A DNA stretch of 64,000 bases from Verrucomicrobiia bacterium (GCA_035765895.1 DASTWL010000014.1:16804-80803), one strand, 5' to 3'; shown: positions 46 through 64,000, counted from the stretch's first letter. Notes: generated by a model from the letters alone, not told the origin. Numbers and translations are program-made.

Positions 46-3000
46 TTAAGGAATCGAAATCCGGAAGAAGCGGCGGAGGTCGTCCGACGGGATGGCCCAG
101 TTCAGCGAGACCGGATCAAAGCCAAACGTGCCGGTGCGTTCCACGGTCCAGTCGGCCAGTGGCAAAGCCAGATTGGTGCTGGCCAAAATGGAATAACTCT
201 GTCCCGCCGCGCCGCTGAAGCAGAAATTGAATTCGCGGCTGCCGGACAGGCCGGCGCCCTGGACGGCCGGTGCGGGCACTTCCGGCGCCGGCGCCGTCGG
301 CACCACGGCCGACCAGCTGGTGCCCAGGCCAATGGCGCCGTAATCAAATTGTTTGCCGCTGTAACCGCCGCGCAAAAAAAACCGGTCGAAACTGAAATCG
401 CCGGAAACGCCGCCGAGGTAGGTCGTCGCGGAACTTTGACTGTTCTCGCCAGCGGTCGTGTCGGGATCAAGCCACACGGTCAGGGTGTCGTCGGCATTGG
501 CGTGGTAATCAATCCGCGCCACGAGCAAATGCACCTGCGCATCCACAAAAAGGTAATTGCCGCTGTGGTTGACGAGGTCCGCCGAGGTGCTGGTGGCGGG
601 CGACCAAAGGCTGAACGCCCAGGCGGATGAACTGTTGCCGATCAAAACTCCCGTGGTGTCATCGCTGCGGCTCAATTGCAGTCCGCCGTAGGCACCGTTT
701 CCGGTATCAAAATGCGCGCGAATCAGAAATCGCAGGTAGAGCGTGCCGCTGATGTTCCCACCGCCGATGGTGCCGCTGGCCGAATCCAGGAGCCCGGCGT
801 CCGCGAACGGTCCGCCGGCGGACAGGTCGGGCAATGCCTCCAAGTTGGAGCCGTCGCCCTTGACGGTGACCGTCCCGCCGGAGGAGTGGAGCAATGGCGA
901 GGTCAGCCCCGGAAAGGAAACGGTTGCCGCATCGGAAACACTCGCGCCAAAAGCATTGTCGAGCCCGAGCCATGAGCCGCCGGTGGCAAAACCGGTGCCA
1001 TGAAAGGCTGTTCCCGGAAGATTGCCCGCCGCGTAATTGCCGAAATTGTCTTCCAACAGAATCTGGCCGGCCGCCCATCCCGAAGCCGGAAAAACGGTCA
1101 GGCTAAACTGGGCGCTGGCGGTGTTGGCGCCATCGGTCACGGTCAACGTCACCGTGCTGCGGCCGGTGCCGCCGGGACTGGGTGTGAGCGTGACGGTGCG
1201 GCCGGCGCCCGTGCCGTCGATCACAATGTTTTGCGTGGTCAGCAGGTTGGTGTTGCTGGACGACGCGATGACGGTGAGCGGATTGCCGCCGGTTGAACTC
1301 ACCGTAAACGGAATGGCCGGGGTCGGCGTGGACGCAGCGGTGGTCTGGTTGGGCACCGTGGAAATGCCGACGGTGTTGTTGAGCGTCAGGTTGGAGAAAA
1401 CCGCCTGGTTGTAATGGGTGTCATCCACGGCATTGGTGGCAGCGATAGCCGCCGTGACAGCCAAACCCACGTAGGCCTGCGCATTGAATCCCGGAATGCT
1501 CACCGCCGCCACCTGGGTCCACTGCGCGCCGCTCGTGGAGGCGTAGGCGATGAAGCTGTCGCCCGTGCGCAGCAAGCGCAACCAGCATGGCGCCGTGAAT
1601 CCGGAGATGGTCGTGGTTTGTGCCGCCGCACCGGCGGTGGACCGGCTTTGAAACACCAGATGATTGTCGGCGGTCAGGGCAATCACGGCGTTGCGCGCGG
1701 TGGCGTCCAGACCTTCGCTGAACAGGATGCCGGCTTCCGCACCCGCGCTGGCGGATGGTTGGCCGGTCAGGCGCACCACCAATTGGGCATTGCTGACGCA
1801 GGGCTGATAAAGATAGTGAAAACCGTCGTTGGTGCCGCCGATGCCCGCGCCGCCGCCGCGCACGAGCCAGACGGCATTGGACGACGTGGACGCGCCCTCA
1901 ATGACGTTGCCGCTGGCACCGACACAGCCGATGTCACCGGAGGTCCACGGGCTGGAAGCCGAAGCGAACGTGGCGACCAGCACATTGCTCGTCAGCACGG
2001 AACTTTCCGGCAAAGTCACTTCAAAGACATCGGCATCCGGCGCGCCGTTGGCCGCCCCGAGCGGCATCGCCGTGGTGTTTTTCACGCGCCGCATGACCGG
2101 GCCGATGGGCTGGCCGTTCAGCGTGACTTGTGCCGGGGCAAGGTCATCCGGCCAGTGGGGCGGACGATGCAGCCGCGCCACCCATGAACGTTGGGTGAGC
2201 GCACCGGTGAAGGTGCCGGCGGCCGGAGCAATCGCAACGGAAACGGTTTTCGCCGCGTCATCCGCCCACGTTTTGAGGGTGGTGGTGCGGAACTGACCCG
2301 CTTGGTAAGCCGTGGTCAGGGTGTCATCCTCGTAAAGCGTCGTCTGGTCGGTTTCCGTGGTGCTCGGATACACGTCCAGCGTGACAGGATCCCAGGGCAA
2401 CTGCCCGGTGTATTCCATTTGCGGCGCGAGCGCAAAGATCGAACCGGAACGGATGAACAAGGGGATCTGGCCGAGCGGGGCGTCCACGGCGGCGGTGGCC
2501 GGGCCGTTCACGGTGGCGCCGGTCCAGGCATTGATCCATTTGCCCGGCGGAACCCAAAGGGTCCGGGACGGATTTGCCCCGAGCGATTGCAACGCAATCA
2601 CGTCTTTGCCGCCCAACTGCAAATACTCGAGGCGCAGCGAGCAGGTTTGGCCGGCTTTTAGGATGCTGCTGGACGTCGTGGTGACGGAGTCATTGGGGCC
2701 CCAATTGTCGATGCAAAGCTGGTTGTCCACCCAGACGCGCACGCCGTCGTCGGACAACGCGGCCAAATGCACGTCGCCGGCTCCGGGCGGGATGGTGAGG
2801 TTGCCAATCCACCGCACGGTGAAATTTTGCGCCGGCACGGAACCGCCGGGGCTGCCGCTGTTCCAATTGAAATCAAGGTTGGGATCCACCCGCGTCAACG
2901 TGGGCGCGCCGCTCAGGTTCGTGCTGGAAAAATAGGCGGCGTTCAGCCCAGGCTGGCCGTTTGTCGTGGTCAGCCACGACGACGGAATGGTGGTCGCGCC

Positions 3001-4569
3001 GCTGTCAATCATTGGGGCCACCAGCAGCGAATGGCCGATCAGGTATTGGTCCTCGCGGCTGGCGTCCGCGTATTGGGGGTAATCCAGATCCAAACGCCGG
3101 AGCAACGGTTCGCCCGTTTCATAATTCTCGTGCGCCGCGGCGTAGAACACCGGCAGCAGCCGATAGCGTAGGTTGAGCAGGCGCCGCGCCGTCCATTCGG
3201 CCTCCGGCCCAAAGGTCCACGGCATGCGCGTCAGGTTGTAGGTGCAATGCGGACGGTAGATGGGCGAGAGCGCGCCATATTCAATCCAGCGGATGTAACC
3301 TTCCGGAGTCGGATTGCTGGTGTGCCCGCCGAGATCGTCGCTTTCGTAGGGGAACAACGCTTGCACGCCCGAGTGAACGGCGTTTTGCACGGCGTATCGC
3401 AGATAGGTTGAGGAAGGGCCGATGTCGCCGGTCCATTGAATGGGATAGGTGTGCGCCGCGACGTTCATTGGCCGGTTGCGGACGCCGTTGTCGATGCCGT
3501 CAATGTTGGCCATGATCATCGGCCGCAAGGACGCGTTGGTGGCGTCCGTGGCGTCATGATAAACCCGCATCCCCCACACTTCGTGGCGCAAATTGGGCGA
3601 GGGCGACAACAAGCTGACGCCCCAGTTGCGGTCATACCACCAGACGTCCAATCCTTCGCCGAGCAGTTGTGTCAGGTTGGTGTAGCGATAAGTGACTTCC
3701 ACCGGATCCAGCGCATTCGCAGCCACCGGTTCGGGATGATCGTTGAACATCACGCGGACGTTGGCGGCGTGCGCTTCGGAAAGGAAACGCGGCATGTCGG
3801 GAAAGAAATTGGAATTGGGCTGGTAACCGGTGGAGGCGTTCACGCGCCAGCCCGTGTCGCAAACCAGCGCATCCAGCGGAATGGAACGCGAACGGTAGGC
3901 GGCAATCTGGTCCAGTGCTGTGGATTCGGTGTAATCATACCAGCGGCTGTCCCAGCAGCCGAACGCCCAGAGCGGAATCATGCCCGTGTGGCCGGTCAGT
4001 TTGAGAAAATCACTGCGCAACTGTTGGTAGCTGCCGTTGGGCACAAACACATAAACGTCGGGGGCATCGTTGTTCGTGTCCCAGCCGCTCGTGGACGCGA
4101 GCGGCGCGCCGGGTGGAGCGGGAGTTATGCCCCAGCCTGGCGGCATCAGACGTGGCGAATCGGCAAACGACCAGGACGCTGGTTTCTCCGCCGGCCCCGG
4201 CAGCCAGACGCTGTTGTTCAGGCTGCCGTCATACGTGAAGTTGGTCTGCCCGCCCGGCGACGTCAGGTAAATGCCGCTCAAGGACGTCGCGCCAGAGGGG
4301 ACATGCACCGTGTAGTTCGGCGTGGAGATCAGCACCTGCCCGGCTCCGAGATTGGTGGTGCTGGCGGTGCCCGGCCAGTCGCGGCTCACCACGTGAAACG
4401 TGGGACGGTCTTCAAATCCCTCCGGCCCCATCACCTCCAGCCGGACGAGGTTGCTGGACAGGCATTGAACACGGACGGAGCCGACAACCACGCTGTCGCC
4501 GGCGATGAGGTTCTGGCTGATGAGCCCAAGATTAACAACGGCAAACAGGGCAACGGTGGCAACTTTCAT
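46..4569 (-). CDS. Secreted glycoside hydrolase family 31 (alpha-glucosidase/alpha-xylosidase-like) with a PA14 insert, a C-terminal jelly-roll (TLY..WLDPD) domain and a terminal FYR-type module
   Basis: 1507-aa ORF with signal peptide MKVATVALFAVVNLGLISQNLIAG. GH31-like motifs VWWYDRNWG, IQWTGDIG and ESDDLGGH. PA14-like stretch GLNAAYFSSTNLSG..FTVRWIGNL..DDGVRVWVDNQLCIDNW. Tail contains GTLYLRF..TVWLDPD..FDRFFLRGG and ends RRFFRISIP. Confidence 0.8.
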   Translation of the reverse strand: MKVATVALFAVVNLGLISQNLIAGDSVVVGSVRVQCLSSNLVRLEVMGPEGFEDRPTFHVVSRDWPGTASTTNLGAGQVLISTPNYTVHVPSGATSLSGIYLTSPGGQTNFTYDGSLNNSVWLPGPAEKPASWSFADSPRLMPPGWGITPAPPGAPLASTSGWDTNNDAPDVYVFVPNGSYQQLRSDFLKLTGHTGMIPLWAFGCWDSRWYDYTESTALDQIAAYRSRSIPLDALVCDTGWRVNASTGYQPNSNFFPDMPRFLSEAHAANVRVMFNDHPEPVAANALDPVEVTYRYTNLTQLLGEGLDVWWYDRNWGVSLLSPSPNLRHEVWGMRVYHDATDATNASLRPMIMANIDGIDNGVRNRPMNVAAHTYPIQWTGDIGPSSTYLRYAVQNAVHSGVQALFPYESDDLGGHTSNPTPEGYIRWIEYGALSPIYRPHCTYNLTRMPWTFGPEAEWTARRLLNLRYRLLPVFYAAAHENYETGEPLLRRLDLDYPQYADASREDQYLIGHSLLVAPMIDSGATTIPSSWLTTTNGQPGLNAAYFSSTNLSGAPTLTRVDPNLDFNWNSGSPGGSVPAQNFTVRWIGNLTIPPGAGDVHLAALSDDGVRVWVDNQLCIDNWGPNDSVTTTSSSILKAGQTCSLRLEYLQLGGKDVIALQSLGANPSRTLWVPPGKWINAWTGATVNGPATAAVDAPLGQIPLFIRSGSIFALAPQMEYTGQLPWDPVTLDVYPSTTETDQTTLYEDDTLTTAYQAGQFRTTTLKTWADDAAKTVSVAIAPAAGTFTGALTQRSWVARLHRPPHWPDDLAPAQVTLNGQPIGPVMRRVKNTTAMPLGAANGAPDADVFEVTLPESSVLTSNVLVATFASASSPWTSGDIGCVGASGNVIEGASTSSNAVWLVRGGGAGIGGTNDGFHYLYQPCVSNAQLVVRLTGQPSASAGAEAGILFSEGLDATARNAVIALTADNHLVFQSRSTAGAAAQTTTISGFTAPCWLRLLRTGDSFIAYASTSGAQWTQVAAVSIPGFNAQAYVGLAVTAAIAATNAVDDTHYNQAVFSNLTLNNTVGISTVPNQTTAASTPTPAIPFTVSSTGGNPLTVIASSSNTNLLTTQNIVIDGTGAGRTVTLTPSPGGTGRSTVTLTVTDGANTASAQFSLTVFPASGWAAGQILLEDNFGNYAAGNLPGTAFHGTGFATGGSWLGLDNAFGASVSDAATVSFPGLTSPLLHSSGGTVTVKGDGSNLEALPDLSAGGPFADAGLLDSASGTIGGGNISGTLYLRFLIRAHFDTGNGAYGGLQLSRSDDTTGVLIGNSSSAWAFSLWSPATSTSADLVNHSGNYLFVDAQVHLLVARIDYHANADDTLTVWLDPDTTAGENSQSSATTYLGGVSGDFSFDRFFLRGGYSGKQFDYGAIGLGTSWSAVVPTAPAPEVPAPAVQGAGLSGSREFNFCFSGAAGQSYSILASTNLALPLADWTVERTGTFGFDPVSLNWAIPSDDLRRFFRISIP

Positions 4570-57807: not shown

Positions 57808-59106
<1,299 letters not shown>

Positions 59107-59182
59107 ATCAATCTGGTAGGGCAGACCTGCTGGTCTGCTTCTCAGGCGGCGCCGCAACGCCGCCCTACCGACAAAAAGCTCA

Positions 59183-59220
59183 CCCCGGAAGTCAGCCATG
59201 GCTTCCGGGGTTTTGCTTTG
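59183..59220 (+). terminator. Rho-independent terminator of eno
   Basis: ccccggaag-tcagccatgg-cttccgggg is a 9-bp stem, followed by ttttgctttg. Confidence 0.85.
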
Positions 59221-59280
59221 CCGTTCACCATTACTCGGAGAGTTCATTTATTTGGATTTGCTCCAAATCTTCTACCTCAT

Positions 59281-59329: not shown

Positions 59330-59938
59330 TCAATTCCCGTTGTTGGATTTGCCCTGTTCCTTCCCGCCCGCGCTCGAACGATCCCAGCCAAAGAGAATTG
59401 CGTGGACCCTCTCCAGCTTCTCGTCATGGCTCAGGGTGGTATCATCTCCCACCACCGCCAGATACGCCCTAAGTTTCGGCAGCTCCTTCACAGACGCAGC
59501 AGTCGCTTCATAATCAAAATACTTTTCGGCCAGCCTTAACCGCGCCCGCCGGATGTCATTGTCCTCACTGTCCAGCAAAAGCTTGGTGAATGACACGAGA
59601 TGCGCCAGTTCCTCCGGCTTTTCGCGGGCCAGCTTCAAGACGGCCTTGCCAACAAGCTTTACTGCTGCGTTCCGCAGACTGGCCACGCTCACGGGCAACT
59701 CATTCAATTCGTCGGCCGCCGCCTGCGCTTCAACCAACTCCTTGACCTGCCGTTCCCGCGCCCGGCGACGATAGAACCGGCCCAAGCTGGCAATGGTGGT
59801 CGTCACCCCGAATTCCTTTTGGACGCGCTCCAACGTTTTCGCGTAACCCAGGTTCTCGTCGAACAACCAGCCCTCCAATGTCTCGCGTTGCTCGCGCGTG
59901 AGTTGGTTCCACGTTGAATCGTCGCGCAGCTTTCTCAT
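59330..59938 (-). CDS. Hypothetical protein (202 aa), translationally coupled to the upstream KTSC gene
   Basis: The ATG at 59938 overlaps the KTSC stop (ATGA). The N-terminus STWNQLTREQRETLEGWLFDENLGYAKTLERVQKEFGVTTTIASLGRFYRR looks helix-turn-helix-like. This resemblance to phage Mu gp27/DUF3486-type proteins is an impression, not a verified hit. Confidence 0.55.
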   Translation of the reverse strand: MRKLRDDSTWNQLTREQRETLEGWLFDENLGYAKTLERVQKEFGVTTTIASLGRFYRRRARERQVKELVEAQAAADELNELPVSVASLRNAAVKLVGKAVLKLAREKPEELAHLVSFTKLLLDSEDNDIRRARLRLAEKYFDYEATAASVKELPKLRAYLAVVGDDTTLSHDEKLERVHAILFGWDRSSAGGKEQGKSNNGN

Positions 59939-60141
59939 CGGGAAAGTTTGCGGCATGAATACCGGTTCTTGATGCGGGCATGGAAATAACGGCCATGCGA
60001 AGCCGCGCGCAGCAGGCCGGCGTATTCTGAATAGGGGACACGTGAGTAGGCGTAAACGCCGCCGCTGTGGAAGACGATGACCAATGTGCCATGCCCGTCG
60101 TAATCCACCGCGGCCAGATTCGAGGATTGAACTGAGATCAC
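59935..60141 (-). CDS. KTSC domain protein
   Basis: 68 aa with a GTG start. SSNLAAVDYDGHGTLVIVFHSGGVYAYSRVPYSEYAGLLRAASHGRYFHARIKNRY follows the KTSC domain pattern (S.I..v.YD...L.V.F..G..Y.Y..VP...y..l..A.S.G.yf...I...Y). Confidence 0.7.
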   Translation of the reverse strand: MISVQSSNLAAVDYDGHGTLVIVFHSGGVYAYSRVPYSEYAGLLRAASHGRYFHARIKNRYSCRKLSR

Positions 60142-60209
60142 ACGTCCACACTAACGATGCAGGGGGTTTGCTAAAATGGGCGTTAAATACCGTGGGATTT
60201 TCCACCTAC
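60093..60209. repeat. Direct repeat copy A (117 bp): KTSC 5' end (49 bp) plus its 68-bp upstream region
   Basis: Aligns without gaps to 63185-63301 with about 12 mismatches (about 90% identity), counted by eye. Confidence 0.85.
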
Positions 60210-60461
60210 CTGGCCGCAGAATTGGCTGCCCCGATGCAGGCCTTGGACATTCTCGACTATTTGATGGCGAAGACGACCTGCGAGCAGCCAAGGAACTATG
60301 CGAAAGCTCAAGGGCCGATTGACCATGTCTGAGCAAAAAACGGCTGCCCATGCGGCGGGTTTGCAACCGTTTTTCTCTTGCATTCGAAAACCGATACCAA
60401 AAACTCAAACTACCGCTGAACTCAGCTCGCACGGAGGGGACGGCCACAAACCAAAAGGAAA

Positions 60462-62465
60462 ATGGCGGACATGAAAACGATCAGGAGTCGTGCAATCGCA
60501 ACCGCAGCCTGCCTGCTGTTCGCAACCGCAGTTCACACCTACGCCATTGAAGGGCTGAAACTCTCCCTGCAATGCAGCAACGTCGTCCTGACGTGGCCGA
60601 GCCTGGACGGCGAAACGTATATCGTCCAATACTGTCCAACGCTCGACACGAATTCGTCGTGGAAAACGCTCACCAACTTCATGCCAGCCGAAGTTGGAAT
60701 GACCAACACGACGTTCGTCCATTCCAACGCCGTGATAATGGCGGTCCATGACGGAGGCGGCTCATTTGCCGCCATGTCGTCCGGCCAGAGCAGTTCAATG
60801 GCTCTGGCCGTTGAAAGCGACACGCCAAGCGAGCCGATGGCATTTCCAACCAACGGCATTGGTTCAGGTGTCCCGCTTCAACTTTTCCCTCCCGGGTTCG
60901 ACATGACGCCTTACTACATTTACGACCCATCCAGCGACGAGTTCGTGAGCGGTTCTTTGCTTTCATCCTCAACGGATGGCGAGATGCAAGCGAACGATAT
61001 TGAGTTTCCACCAGCAGAGGAAGGCGGGGGCATCACCAATAGCAGCGGAGATTTCATCGCCGAAACGGCGTTCTACCGTGTCGTTCGGAATGGCGTTCAT
61101 CTGGTTGGCATCACCGACGGAATAAACCTGTCGGGCGTTGTCACAATCCCCGTGGAGGTTGGAACCGACGCAGGCATCTTGGCCGCATTGAGCGTCAGAG
61201 AGGACGGTTCACCCGTCGGGAACTCACAGGCCATTGCACCTTTTCAGGGACCGCTGCAAATTGTTCTGGATACAACTGCGATGAGTAACGGCGTCCATCA
61301 AATCACGGGTTATGCCTCATGGATTTCGGGCGGGGATGAAGACGGCACGACTGGCGTGGATGCAGAGTCGCCGCCGATCACGGTCAATGTTTACAACGAG
61401 ATTACGTTCCCAACTTGGATTGAGCATTTCGGGGAACTTTACGACTCGGTTCTGATTACCGCTCAGTTGGGCCATGCGGACGCCGACTGGTATGTGGACG
61501 TGTATGGCAGCGGTGCGGGCTACATCGGAACATTTTCGGGTCACACGACCGATGGAACGATTTACGGTTGGTGGGACTTGGTTGGGCCTGGTGGCGTGGC
61601 TTACACGAACGAAGCATATTTTGATTTCGTGGTGTCGTCTGATTATGCGGGGCAGGCACCCCAAGGGAACGGCCCGCAGCCGAACGGAAGTTCAACTTCG
61701 GTTCCCAAGCGAACCTATCGGCAAACCGATAACTGGATTAGCAAAGGCATGTGGGTCACGGCCAATCTGCAAGCATGGGAGGGTTTGACAGGCAGTGATT
61801 TGCTGGACATCGCAACGGATGGATTTGTTACCATCGCCGACGGAGCAGGATTGACAACACGTCCATCGCACTCGATAGGGGAAGCATTCCGAATTCAGTA
61901 TGGTTCAAACATTCCAGTATCCACAAGGAACAGCCAATGGCAATCTCTGCGAAATGCCATCTACCACCCTGAATCTCGCAACTTTTTCTACCTTGGACAC
62001 GGCTCACCCGATGGAATTGGCGGAAGTGCGGACACAAACCGCTTCATCACCGCCTCAGAGATTTCCACCAATCTTCACACATTACCTGCCGGGCAGACAA
62101 ACCGTCACGGGTATCGCTTTGTATTCCTCTATGGGTGTGAAACCGCCAGCGGGAAACTGCCCGAAGCATTCGGCATCATTCATCGGGAAAATGTTCCCGT
62201 TGTTGATTACGTTGATGCTGCCCTAACGCCCGGGGCGTTCGTTGGCTGGAACGACAAACAAAAGGCAGGCATCCTTGGTTCGACCTTCACAGACAACGCC
62301 CATTTCATCCAGCACTTCCAATGGGAGTGGACAACCAGCGGCTTGGGTGTCAGTGAATGCTTGGATCGTGCAAAGAATCTTTATTCCGACGTGGGCTTTA
62401 TTGACCGCAGTAAACTCAAGGTCTTTGGAAACTGGGAACTGCATCCGCTCGACTTCAACAGGTGA
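60462..62465 (+). CDS. Secreted protein with N-terminal FYR-type module, Ig-like domain and C-terminal caspase-fold (CHAT/C25-like) His-Cys domain
   Basis: Signal peptide MADMKTIRSRAIATAACLLFATAVHTYA. VVLTWPSLDGETYIVQYCPTLDTNSSWKTL .. AETAFYRVV. FFYLGHGSPDG (His513, codon 61998-62000) and FVFLYGCETASG (Cys559, codon 62136-62138) resemble the CHAT HG and ACxT(A)xG dyad motifs. Confidence 0.6.
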   Translation: MADMKTIRSRAIATAACLLFATAVHTYAIEGLKLSLQCSNVVLTWPSLDGETYIVQYCPTLDTNSSWKTLTNFMPAEVGMTNTTFVHSNAVIMAVHDGGGSFAAMSSGQSSSMALAVESDTPSEPMAFPTNGIGSGVPLQLFPPGFDMTPYYIYDPSSDEFVSGSLLSSSTDGEMQANDIEFPPAEEGGGITNSSGDFIAETAFYRVVRNGVHLVGITDGINLSGVVTIPVEVGTDAGILAALSVREDGSPVGNSQAIAPFQGPLQIVLDTTAMSNGVHQITGYASWISGGDEDGTTGVDAESPPITVNVYNEITFPTWIEHFGELYDSVLITAQLGHADADWYVDVYGSGAGYIGTFSGHTTDGTIYGWWDLVGPGGVAYTNEAYFDFVVSSDYAGQAPQGNGPQPNGSSTSVPKRTYRQTDNWISKGMWVTANLQAWEGLTGSDLLDIATDGFVTIADGAGLTTRPSHSIGEAFRIQYGSNIPVSTRNSQWQSLRNAIYHPESRNFFYLGHGSPDGIGGSADTNRFITASEISTNLHTLPAGQTNRHGYRFVFLYGCETASGKLPEAFGIIHRENVPVVDYVDAALTPGAFVGWNDKQKAGILGSTFTDNAHFIQHFQWEWTTSGLGVSECLDRAKNLYSDVGFIDRSKLKVFGNWELHPLDFNR

Positions 62466-62471
62466 GTTCTT

Positions 62472-63170
62472 ATGGAACAACTAATACACATTACTGCCAC
62501 GTATTCCAATGCTTTGCTCGTGGCTATCCTTCCGCACGTTTCTGACTTCGCAAAGAAGTTGGACTTGCCAATCGCACAACCGATCACGCAGGAACAAGTG
62601 CTTCGCTTCAATCCTAATCCATATAAGGGGCACTTTTCGGGGACCGTCATCTTAAAAAACCACTGGTGGTTTCACTTTGATGAAGGTGGCTATGTGGACA
62701 GTTTCAGTTCGGCGACCAATTGGTTTACGGCGGATGAAGATGCCGTGGACAACACGCAATACTACACGGGCACAACAAGGATGACCACGAATGAAATCAT
62801 TGGCTTTGCCCGAACCGTTCTTCTCAAACTTGGCTACCCGCCAGTCCTCACGCATTCAGATGCCATCCCGGAGTTGCAGGGACCGTATAATCTGAAACAT
62901 GGAGGGCATGTTACATACAGCCGTGTTTTATGGGAACCCGTCACAGATCACGACAGCGGCGACTACAGCAAAGTCCGTGTGGAGATAAACACTCAAGAAA
63001 GGGCGCTGGTTGGCCTTTACATCTGGTTTACAAAAACCAATCGAACAAGAATCGCGGCCCCGTTAAAAATTGATGTGGAACCAGAACTCGAAACCGATTT
63101 TCGGAAGCGAACGAAGGTTGGCGGCATGTTCATCCGCAGCAACGCCCCACCTGTGCTGCCAAAGAAGTGA
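62472..63170 (+). CDS. Hypothetical protein (232 aa), 6 nt downstream of the caspase-like gene
   Basis: Clean ORF in a visibly lower-GC stretch (42% in the sampled line at 62461). No signal peptide and no recognised domain. Confidence 0.6.
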   Translation: MEQLIHITATYSNALLVAILPHVSDFAKKLDLPIAQPITQEQVLRFNPNPYKGHFSGTVILKNHWWFHFDEGGYVDSFSSATNWFTADEDAVDNTQYYTGTTRMTTNEIIGFARTVLLKLGYPPVLTHSDAIPELQGPYNLKHGGHVTYSRVLWEPVTDHDSGDYSKVRVEINTQERALVGLYIWFTKTNRTRIAAPLKIDVEPELETDFRKRTKVGGMFIRSNAPPVLPKK

Positions 63171-63233
63171 TTATTCGGGTGCCGGCCCGTCGTAATCCAC
63201 CGCGGCCAGATTCGAGGATTGAACAGCGATCAC
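63171..63233 (-). pseudogene. Truncated KTSC gene remnant (first 16 codons conserved, then 4 unrelated codons and a stop)
   Basis: Reverse-complement translation from a GTG start gives (M)IAVQSSNLAAVDYDGPAPE then a stop, against (M)ISVQSSNLAAVDYDGHGTLV.. in the intact copy. Homology ends at 63185. Confidence 0.65.
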
Positions 63234-63301
63234 ACGTCCACACTAACGGCGCACGAAGTTTGCTGAAATGGGCGATAAATGCCGTGGGATTTTCCGCCTA
63301 C
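63185..63301. repeat. Direct repeat copy B (117 bp), partner of 60093-60209
   Basis: Same alignment as copy A. Its distal end coincides with the stop codon (63298-63300) of the upstream minus-strand gene. Confidence 0.85.
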
Positions 63302-63999
63302 TTGCTGTGTCCGCCTCGGGTCGGCCAGTTCAACGGGCGTTCTGAGCTGGCAAGAAACGGAAACAGCCGGTGAAACATTTCATCCGCCCGCTTCCTTTCT
63401 TTATACCACTCACGTTTGCGGTAGAGCTGCCAGGCCTTCGGAGATTTCTTCTCCAGCTCACCTTTGCTGAAGTGATGGAGCAGTCGCATCATGCCCAGCC
63501 GTTCCAAGGCCACCCGCCAATCCCGCGCTTTGTTCCGGCCCTTGCCGTCAGGGCCGGGAATGTCTTGGGGCCGGTTGGTTTTCACCCATTTGCGAAACTC
63601 CTGGATGATTTCCTCGTTGGTAAAGACGCCCCAACATATTTGCACCACGGTATGCTCCGTGCCGCTCCCGTAAATGACCGAAGCCGGGACATTGGAATAC
63701 CGCAGCTTGCCCAGTCGTGCGAGCACTTCGTCGTTGAGTTCGGGATTCTCCAGCCTCGCCCGCGCGTTGGCTTCATCAATCAATCGCCTTTGTTGTGCCA
63801 CCATCTCCACAATGTCCTTTGCGTCGAGGGGAATGCCGCGCTCGAAGGGGAGCAACTGAACCGAATCCACCAGGCCGCGCGGGGGAGTGTATGCTCGGAA
63901 CTCCCGCTCCGCTTTCGTAAGCAACTGCCATGGCTTCGGGAAACTTCCCGTCAGCCGGTGAACCTCGCCCAGCTTGAGGGGCAACGCATCGGCCAGCAC
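63298..63999 (-). CDS. Hypothetical protein, 5'-partial at the window edge
   Basis: The open frame runs to the end of the window. Charged C-terminal region GRNKARDWRVALERLGMMRLLHHFSKGELEKKSPKAWQLYRKREWYKERKRADEMF. No family was recognised. Confidence 0.55.
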   Translation of the reverse strand: MLADALPLKLGEVHRLTGSFPKPWQLLTKAEREFRAYTPPRGLVDSVQLLPFERGIPLDAKDIVEMVAQQRRLIDEANARARLENPELNDEVLARLGKLRYSNVPASVIYGSGTEHTVVQICWGVFTNEEIIQEFRKWVKTNRPQDIPGPDGKGRNKARDWRVALERLGMMRLLHHFSKGELEKKSPKAWQLYRKREWYKERKRADEMFHRLFPFLASSERPLNWPTRGGHSK

Positions 64000-64000
64000 T

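Follow-up and report, generated by a model that had tools for sequence, protein, structure and literature searches.

Why should a two-gene cassette be bracketed by two copies of the start of a resident gene together with the region upstream of it? The question is raised by the last part of the window (the whole 64,000-nt stretch of Verrucomicrobiia DNA analysed), where a sequence-only reading had noted 117-bp direct repeats, about 90% identical, on either side of the genes p667 and p232, one copy continuing into an intact KTSC gene and the other into a truncated one. Our analysis answers that the repeats were left behind when a foreign two-gene cassette entered a restriction-modification island by recombination, a scar of an ordinary, well documented kind rather than the trace of a new kind of mobile element.

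The repeat pair and its extent

A repeat search of the window returned a two-member family at 60093-60212 and 63185-63304, 120 nt long, ungapped, identical at 108 of 120 positions (90%) and with a spacing of 3092 nt, and a MAFFT alignment of the two copies agreed with it. The similarity is far above the chance level and, once computed, proved neither lower nor shorter than first read. Across the whole 4.64-Mb assembly (96 contigs) the repeat matches at these two places only (E 2.6e-57 and 4.8e-41); a third copy was sought there and none was found, the next-best matches having E > 1. All 12 mismatches between the copies lie at or above 60133, beyond a core that is exact in both (Table 1). When the full length is measured with the empty site of a relative (L040) as reference, homology of copy B extends 6 nt further left, a 1-nt indel included, and the duplicated target comes to about 126-127 nt.

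The repeat is made up of 49 nt of KTSC coding sequence and 68-71 nt of upstream sequence. Copy A is, as had been claimed, the start of an intact KTSC gene, whose product matches PF13619 at 73.3 bits (cut-off 25) over profile positions 1-58 of 58 and belongs to that family; exact-protein look-ups with it and with an 82-aa reading frame spanning copy A returned no record. The truncation of copy B after codon 16 was likewise read correctly: its translation is V-IAVQSSNLAAVDYDGPAPE-stop, and its TAA (63171-63173) lies beside the TGA of p232 (63168-63170). Because only about 16-18 codons are kept, this stump is a fragment and not a member of the KTSC family. The outer end of copy B spans the stop codon of p330 (63298-63300) and the last p330 codon, which bears out the reported coincidence with the end of the upstream gene.

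Table 1. Features of the locus, in window coordinates
Feature	Position	Strand	Remarks
Last 55 nt of eno with terminator-like hairpin (59182-59211)	59052..59221	+	Left copy of the outer direct repeat bracketing the low-GC island
p202/p208	59330..59938	-	Conserved partner downstream of KTSC; ATGA stop-start overlap with KTSC
KTSC gene, intact	59935..60141	-	68 aa, GTG start; Pfam PF13619, E 1.3e-20
Repeat copy A	60086..60212 (ungapped 60093-60212)	.	KTSC codons 1-18, 64-nt spacer, remnant of p330 stop and last codon
Exact core, 40 nt	A 60093-60132; B 63185-63224	.	Identical in both copies; short-read unitigs end there
Near-palindrome AAAATCCCACGGTATTTA (palindrome AAAATCCCACGGYATTTA)	A 60184..60201; B 63276-63293	-	Operator-like; kept in p330-KTSC spacers of distant relatives
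Cassette	60213..63178	+	2.97 kb; GC 53% against 62% for the genome; ends set by alignment to the L040 empty site
Terminator-like hairpin	60354..60380	+	Within the left 249 nt of the cassette, after an open 40-codon tail (60213-60332)
p667	60462..62465	+	Signal peptide, Ig-like beta-sandwich domains, C-terminal caspase-fold domain
p232	62472..63170	+	232 aa; conserved p667 partner; no signal peptide; two alpha+beta4 modules
Truncated KTSC	63171..63233	-	20-codon reading frame: 16 KTSC codons, then a frameshifted tail and TAA
Repeat copy B	63179..63304 (ungapped 63185-63304)	.	From repeat search, alignment and empty-site comparison
TGCC microhomology	63180..63183	.	L028 cassette end joined here to position 85979 of the window's contig (G000 C14), 5.99 kb skipped
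p330, 3' part	63298..64000 (gene to window-equivalent 64290)	-	330 aa; conserved partner upstream of KTSC

Empty sites and a foreign cassette

The host locus is an island linked to restriction-modification genes that adjoins the 3' end of eno; within it p330, a 64-nt spacer, KTSC and p202 follow one another in the same direction. The right copy of the outer repeat lies beyond the window, at window-equivalent 66455-66607, and a repeat search of the contig L009 resolves this repeat into stretches of 55 nt (91%) and 40 nt (90%), the copies being about 7.4 kb apart. The genome contains one p330 and one KTSC of this type, besides one unrelated KTSC (44% identity) on another contig.

A comparison with relatives had been proposed as the way to find an empty site, and a contig of about 85% identity (L040) supplies one. 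There the island again adjoins eno, whose 3' end is also on the contig, and p330 (84% aa identity), a single segment, KTSC (88%) and p202 (88%) follow in uninterrupted succession with no cassette; positions 1932-2049 of the contig can be aligned to either copy of the repeat. The same layout occurs in L041-L046, where p202 again stands directly after KTSC (76% aa identity in L045 and L046), and in 22 of 40 species-level loci; about 25 loci beyond L040 show it. The gap between p330 and KTSC in these relatives is 68-225 nt, and neither a kb-size insert nor a second KTSC fragment was found in the uninterrupted loci; the cassette is absent from all of the roughly 30 other p330-KTSC loci. Synteny within the genus and the family is uninformative on the ancestral state, because these species share no conserved region beyond eno and the two same-genus contigs reach only about 1.5-1.7 kb past it. 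The single segment without a cassette in the relatives shows that a 2.97-kb low-GC3 cassette was inserted with a target duplication of about 126 nt. Since these 126 nt, from the p330 stop to KTSC codon 18, stand on both sides of the insert, p330 and KTSC-p202 are complete and KTSC has kept its upstream region. The locus shows an accessory gene pair entering an operon-like module with neither neighbour destroyed, the neighbours surviving because the putative control region and the gene start of the target were duplicated.

The cassette is compositionally foreign, with a GC3 of 0.56-0.60 against 0.74-0.86 in host genes, and is transcribed opposite to the resident operon. Its first gene, p667, encodes a secreted Ig-repeat protein with a caspase fold. 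In the caspase-fold domain of p667 an alignment shows His513 to be invariant and Cys559 near-invariant, and the AF2 model (pLDDT 82) matches procaspase-1 in Foldseek (3e4c_B, prob 1.00, E 6e-4) in addition to Ig-repeat structures. The AF2 model of p232 has a pLDDT of 92, and a search of the PDB for a solved structure gave no match at E < 0.06. We found 78 homologues of p667 and 76 of p232, the latter on the same contigs as the former, and homologous pairs elsewhere have unrelated neighbours, for instance rpsG and fusA in L048; the cassette travels on its own. No long flanking repeats surround its homologues in L029, L047 and L048. The open 40-codon tail at its left end, for which no homologue was found, is followed by a hairpin, and this gives a slight hint that the cut releasing the cassette from its source fell arbitrarily within a neighbouring gene.

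With empty relatives, a foreign GC3 and a conserved operator-/promoter-like segment, the proposal that the capture of a cassette duplicated a promoter region is in essence correct. The remark that a transposase target-site duplication would not be this long also holds. A transposon too leaves its insert flanked by direct repeats of the target, but these are exact and 2-15 nt long, against about 126 nt at 90% here; the cassette proteins matched nothing in Pfam, PHROG or NCBIfam and no recombinase in PADLOC, and the cassette ends hold no terminal inverted repeats, the best inverted match being at shuffle level. Transposition was rejected on these four grounds of length, inexactness, missing transposase and missing terminal inverted repeats. 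An integron cassette was rejected as well: integrons likewise offer a promoter-adjacent slot for a promoterless or self-contained cassette, whereas here there is no IntI on the contig and no attC-like imperfect palindrome or other inverted-repeat structure at the cassette ends, the cassette runs opposite to the resident operon, and the site is filled in one lineage only. Among recombinase families, PF00589 (tyrosine recombinases) matches contigs C3, C39, C40, C42 and C51 only, with no match on the window's 88-kb contig (C14), and PF00239 (serine recombinases) has no match in the genome.

Competing accounts of the duplication

The sister strain L028 carries a cassette 99.5% identical to that of the window, but there the same end of the cassette is connected by way of TGCC to a site lying 6 kb further downstream, and this motif also precedes the site in the window's genome (C14:85975-85978). 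The divergence of the two strains differs by segment: it is 8.3% in the repeat (10 of 120 positions) against 0.47% in the cassette (14 of 2971; Fisher P = 7e-9), and the right flank is also more diverged, at 3.2% (4 of 126; P = 0.005). At 9 of the 10 differing repeat positions L028 has the base of copy B, its repeat being a mosaic of A and B with the B bases in the centre; judging by this pattern, recombination has acted within the repeat. Identity to the outgroup is 77.5% for copy B and 72.5% for copy A, copy B keeping more outgroup states, and the pair resembles two natural alleles more than a duplicate that has drifted apart. The locus is a natural example for which the site is known both empty and filled, as well as in the variant form of a sister strain, and it provides a strain-level structural marker for an uncultured Verrucomicrobiota lineage.

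We put at about even the chance that the arrangement goes back to an illegitimate, homology-facilitated recombination event linking two diverged alleles of the island. One allele would have had the cassette already beside KTSC, as in the sister strain, and the other an intact p330-KTSC junction, as in the relatives; after DNA uptake, a crossover at the GTGCC/TGCC microhomology would have placed p667 and p232 within the p330-KTSC spacer, and the two copies would later have served as substrates for gene conversion. A single join of this kind would account both for the duplication and for the 10% difference between A and B. Recombination of this type has reportedly been described in natural transformation, and the present case resembles it in that foreign DNA has a homologous anchor next to it and a joint at 4-5 nt of microhomology, GTGCC being common to the cassette end and KTSC codons 17-18 in the L040 alignment, in the lack of mobile-element features and in the unequal divergence on the two sides. 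It differs in that 126 nt have been duplicated here, while recipient DNA is usually deleted in such events. Against a crossover of two alleles also stand a 1-nt indel exactly at the copy B join and the possibility that the L028 form was derived from the window form by a 6-kb deletion at TGCC; the mosaic repeat of L028 would come most simply from an ancestor with copy B, which would favour the window form as the earlier one. A search for the postulated intact donor allele found no strain at >95% identity, and a JGI metagenome scan with the repeat core gave 0 matches.

It is possible, though rather doubtful, that the duplication was instead made in place, either through entry of the cassette at breaks separated by about 126 nt or through microhomology-guided template switching during replication. 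The copies would then have been identical at first, with mutation and conversion from other alleles later setting them apart, and L028 would represent a later TGCC-mediated deletion of 6 kb. Only two events are required for such a course, the central copy-B bases of the L028 repeat would be natural if copy B had once been present there and converted copy A, and TGCC on both sides of the 6-kb segment is a typical signature of microhomology deletion. However, the 10% divergence of the copies (14% on the promoter side) is some 20-30 times that of the cassette between strains, and the more conserved copy is the orphan, copy B. Moreover, with kilobases available to it, the left end of the deletion would have landed by chance no more than about 5 nt from the old joint, and the higher divergence of the L028 right flank is left unexplained.

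Integration of a circle by a Campbell-type single crossover appears unlikely. The circle would have held the cassette with its own diverged KTSC start and upstream region, and homologous recombination, or a recombinase acting in trans, would have operated within the 40-nt core, so that the promoter side of copy A would derive from the element and that of copy B from the resident. This fits the placement of all 12 mismatches on the promoter side of the exact core, in the manner of attL and attR, and the closer resemblance to the outgroup of copy B, which is contiguous with p330; the insert lies between direct repeats of a homology segment, and recombination between them would permit its excision as a 3.09-kb circle. 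Integrative islands in gene ends, such as those of tRNA and tmRNA genes, are flanked by attL/attR direct repeats and bring along a replacement copy of the gene end. The likeness extends to repeats made of a gene end and adjacent sequence, to an identical core within flanks of about 90% similarity and to an interrupted gene left intact with its displaced fragment at the far end, and the same logic applies at the eno 3' end to the island as a whole, bracketed by an analogous repeat of about 90%. Here, in contrast, it is a 5' end, together with its control region, that was targeted instead of a 3' end; of the marks of a site-specific element, the shared identical core is present, while an adjacent recombinase is found neither in the cassette nor on the contig and no other genome has the cassette at this site, the roughly 30 further p330-KTSC loci included. 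No replication or integration function was seen, cassette homologues elsewhere have neither a KTSC fragment nor long flanking repeats, the left end of the cassette resembles an arbitrary cut through a neighbouring gene and its terminator, and how the first circle gained its KTSC fragment is left unexplained.

In a related but very improbable reading, the KTSC start with its operator region would be a dedicated recombination site at which cassettes lacking a recombinase are captured and released, through a recombinase in trans or the p330, KTSC and p202 proteins, with the 40-nt core as the crossover and the cassette plus one repeat as the 3.09-kb mobile circle; the trio would then be a platform through which defence islands of Verrucomicrobiota acquire cassettes. 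Still less probable is the earlier suggestion of recombination between two paralogous KTSC loci of one genome, one of them later truncated by deletion or recombination: beyond the existence of a truncated second KTSC start nothing favours it, the genome has one p330 and one KTSC of the type, no remnant of p330 was found upstream of copy A, and a search among relatives for an ancestral state in which both KTSC genes were intact found one KTSC per module in every relative examined and an uninterrupted site in the closest. Finally, the arrangement is not an assembly artefact: although the metagenome-assembled genome is in 96 contigs and Logan unitigs break at the core, a mis-joining of strain variants at the shared 40-mer has a negligible chance of being the explanation, since the exact core is far below read length, the same pieces recur at 99.9% identity in the Logan contigs of five independent runs (cassette end to copy B in L036 and L037, copy B to p330 in L038 and L039), and the L028 contig is continuous from KTSC through copy A into the cassette.

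The duplicated segment as a putative control region

From conservation, we infer that the duplicated segment holds an operator-like palindrome together with a -10-like box. A scan of both copies for sigma-70 consensus promoters found none, and as a structured RNA the repeat has no Rfam match and folds no better than shuffles. Copy B is probably an orphan control region, because the conserved operator-like palindrome lies within the segment. Copy A would continue to control KTSC-p202, whereas copy B would read into the 20-codon stump and then antisense into the cassette, and may offer a second binding site to whatever protein binds the palindrome. The locus may serve as a natural duplication of a putative promoter and operator for studying the control of KTSC-p202.

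Sequence searches with p330, p202, p667 and p232 in PADLOC, PHROG, NCBIfam and the PDB were uninformative, a methylase and an MmeI fragment aside; p202 has no family match in Pfam, NCBIfam or PHROG, and p330, with 296 homologues, has no match in the plasmid and phage collections. The locus points to an uncharacterised, widely conserved trio of p330, KTSC and either p202 or an HTH coiled-coil protein. This trio is often found beside MmeI-type restriction-modification genes.

The repeat and its uninterrupted counterparts

A repeat search of the window and a MAFFT alignment agree on a single repeat family, two direct, ungapped copies of 120 nt (A and B) that are 90% identical, spaced 3092 nt apart, and bracket the cassette genes p667 and p232. 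The sequence-only reading had described repeats of 117 bp at about 90% identity and proposed a self-comparison for further copies, which in the 4.64-Mb assembly (96 contigs), where the window occupies C14:16804-80803, returned only A and B (E 2.6e-57 and 4.8e-41). Its account of the ends also held up: copy A heads a full KTSC gene, copy B leaves a KTSC stump of 20 codons whose TAA abuts the TGA of the 232-aa gene p232, and the stop codon of the 330-aa gene p330 falls within the outer end of copy B. Over the first 40 nt the copies are identical; all 12 mismatches are promoter-side, from 60133 upwards.

Coordinates of the repeats and associated features (window positions unless a locus is named)
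Feature	Position	Remarks
Repeat copy A	60093-60212	
Repeat copy B	63185-63304	
Duplicated target, A side	60086-60212	edges from pairwise alignment with L040
Duplicated target, B side	63179-63304	edges as above; 1-nt indel
KTSC gene headed by copy A	59935-60141	minus strand; intact, 68 aa, PF13619 E 1.3e-20
p232	62472-63170	
p330-KTSC-p202 trio	59330-60141, 63298-64000	also in L040-L046, L053-L092
eno-end repeat, left	59052-59106, 59182-59221	
eno-end repeat, right	L009 11259-11313, 11372-11411	beyond the window
MmeI-type IIG fragment	L009 10416-11255	beyond the window
Cassette homologue in the str operon	L048 2821-5944	
Truncated p330 homologue and p667-like fragment	L081 1202-1971	

The closest relative outside the species, a Logan contig (L040, SRR32390732; DNA identity about 85%), encodes p330, KTSC and p202 at 84%, 88% and 88% amino-acid identity, followed by a convergent eno 3' end (95% over 42 residues); the island and its chromosomal site are those of the window, but the cassette is absent. 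In blastn, its positions 991-2049 correspond to p330 through copy B and 1932-3160 to copy A through eno, with 1932-2049 (118 nt) aligning to both copies alike. In four further loci (L041-L044) the uninterrupted order runs from an MmeI enzyme, intact at 977 aa, through a 62-aa gene (which was not called in L042) to homologues of p330, KTSC and p202; L045 and L046 have the same trio behind different restriction genes. Of 40 species-level loci, 22 have KTSC beginning 68-225 nt past p330, with either a p202 homologue or an HTH/coiled-coil gene after it. Neither a kilobase insert nor a second KTSC fragment was found in L040-L046 or these 22 loci; in the window's genome p330 occurs once, and the one additional KTSC, on a different contig, is 44% identical. 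One KTSC is therefore the ancestral state, which leaves the proposed recombination between two paralogous KTSC loci unsupported, and an ancestral arrangement with two intact KTSC genes was found in none of these loci. The empty-site layout of the relatives shows the event in the window to be a one-off insertion with a target duplication of about 126 nt. Of the two proposals in the sequence-only reading, it is the other, a cassette capture that duplicated a promoter region, that holds in essence. Recombination scars with a duplicated target are already known; what is new is a further instance with unusually complete comparative support.

Within the p330-KTSC spacer, the near-palindrome AAATnCCACGGnATTT is kept across distant loci, as is a -10-like box (TAGAAT, TAAAAT) about 7 nt ahead of the start codon, and the duplicated segment would include a putative internal operator/promoter for KTSC-p202. 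A simple sigma-70 scan found no promoter in either window copy, and the repeat gave no Rfam match and no stable RNA fold. KTSC has been called a DNA-binding domain in one paper (PMC9503650).

The trio p330-KTSC-p202 (or HTH/coiled-coil protein) is uncharacterised and widely conserved in Verrucomicrobiota, p330 alone having 296 matches, chiefly from this phylum, with no annotated function. It adjoins MmeI-type restriction genes in 7 of the 40 species-level loci, as well as in L041-L046, and was not found in plasmid and phage collections. A genome of the same order (G041) holds three p202/p208 homologues on separate contigs (C13, C16, C18; L020, L025, L027), none with KTSC within 1.5 kb, which hints that p202/p208 is also part of a multi-copy element.

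A sister strain and the origin of the duplication

A sister-strain contig of 3271 nt (L028, Logan SRR33230216_1821841) is 99.2% identical to window 60035-63186. Its final 126 nt are 96.8% identical to C14:85979-86104, which on the window's own contig is the spacer separating the gene for the large secreted protein from the FGE-like gene. The strain is without 5.99 kb comprising the KTSC stump, copy B, p330, methylase, MmeI fragment, right eno repeat, ArsR, AHSA1 and FGE. Its joint (window 63180 / C14:85979) lies within TGCC, a tetranucleotide that each end of the missing 5.99 kb carries, and KTSC reads GTGCC at the homologous position. Point differences are concentrated to either side of this joint. 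Divergence from the window is uneven: 14 of 2971 positions differ in the cassette, 10 of 120 in the repeat (Fisher P = 7e-9 against the cassette) and 4 of 126 in the right flank (P = 0.005). At 9 of the 10 differing repeat positions the sister strain has the copy-B base, with copy-A bases at the cassette-proximal end; over 120 nt it is 96.7% identical to B and 91.7% to A. The supposedly functionless copy B is also closer than copy A to the outgroup consensus (77.5% and 72.5% identity to L040). This mosaic and the uneven divergence establish the repeat as a past substrate of recombination or gene conversion. No further strains emerged from exact-protein look-ups (KTSC and an 82-aa ORF spanning copy A) or from a repeat-core scan of JGI metagenomes.

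The insertion shows neither transposon nor integron features; its joints have microhomology and its repeat is mosaic. In the best-fitting model, to which we give about an even chance, an illegitimate crossover anchored by homology would have joined two diverged island alleles at GTGCC/TGCC, one carrying KTSC-segment-cassette and the other segment-p330. Its fit derives from the 10% difference between A and B, the better-conserved copy B, the occurrence of one cassette end in two right-hand contexts, and the uneven divergence. The main alternative begins with a duplicative insertion in situ, after which the copies would have diverged or been converted and the sister strain would have undergone a TGCC deletion. 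It would account for the copy-B-like centre of the sister repeat but seems unlikely, as the insertion must be old, a deletion end point must coincide and the orphan copy must be the better conserved one. Slightly less probable again is a Campbell-type or site-specific circle integration, which agrees with an exact core and with mismatches confined to the promoter side but lacks a second occupied site and a recombinase, no tyrosine or serine recombinase being encoded on C14.

The cassette and its island

With 78 and 76 homologues, often on one contig, p667 and p232 are conserved as a pair. Homologous pairs adjoin NfeD/Band7 genes in L029 and lie in an unannotated cluster two genes upstream of a serpin gene in L047, while in another Verrucomicrobiota genome (L048) rpsG and fusA of the normally invariant str operon are separated by an XRE-type regulator with 663-aa and 234-aa genes. 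Long flanking repeats are found around none of these three. In p667 homologues, His513 is invariant and Cys559 near-invariant, and the p667 model (pLDDT 82) combines Ig-like domains with a C-terminal domain matching procaspase-1 (probability 1.00, E 6e-4). The p232 model (pLDDT 92) consists of two alpha+beta4 modules without a PDB match at E < 0.06; its weak top matches include PepSY-like and propeptide-like domains, which would be in keeping with an inhibitor or chaperone acting on the caspase-fold partner. No inverted repeats mark the cassette's ends. In its left 249 nt, an open tail of 40 codons precedes a terminator-like hairpin, which may reflect an arbitrary cut from a source genome. In a Limisphaerales MAG (L081), a p330 homologue stops at residue 214, and after it the opposite strand carries a short fragment resembling the p667 C-terminus (38% over 53 aa, E 5e-5), which may be a second, decayed contact of the two gene sets.

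The surrounding lower-GC island (genome GC 62%) starts directly after the eno terminator and is about 7 kb long. The gene order, read from the window and L009 (C14:72000-87935), is eno (+), p202 (-), KTSC (-), copy A, 249 nt, p667 (+), p232 (+), KTSC stump, copy B, p330 (-), an N6/N4 DNA methylase (-), an MmeI-type IIG fragment (-), ArsR, AHSA1-like, FGE-sulfatase-like and a large secreted protein. GC3 is 0.74-0.86 in host genes and 0.56-0.78 in island genes (0.56-0.72 if the MmeI fragment is left out), with 0.56-0.60 in the cassette genes. A second direct repeat brackets the whole island: about 7.4 kb downstream there is another copy of the last 55 nt of eno and of the terminator, 90-91% identical to the first and resembling an att-like scar of an island that would have integrated at the eno 3' end. 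No integrase is left in the island. The MmeI-type enzyme retains only its N-terminal 279 aa (relatives, about 977 aa) and, with the separate 451-aa methylase that follows it, constitutes a decayed or remodelled restriction-modification unit.
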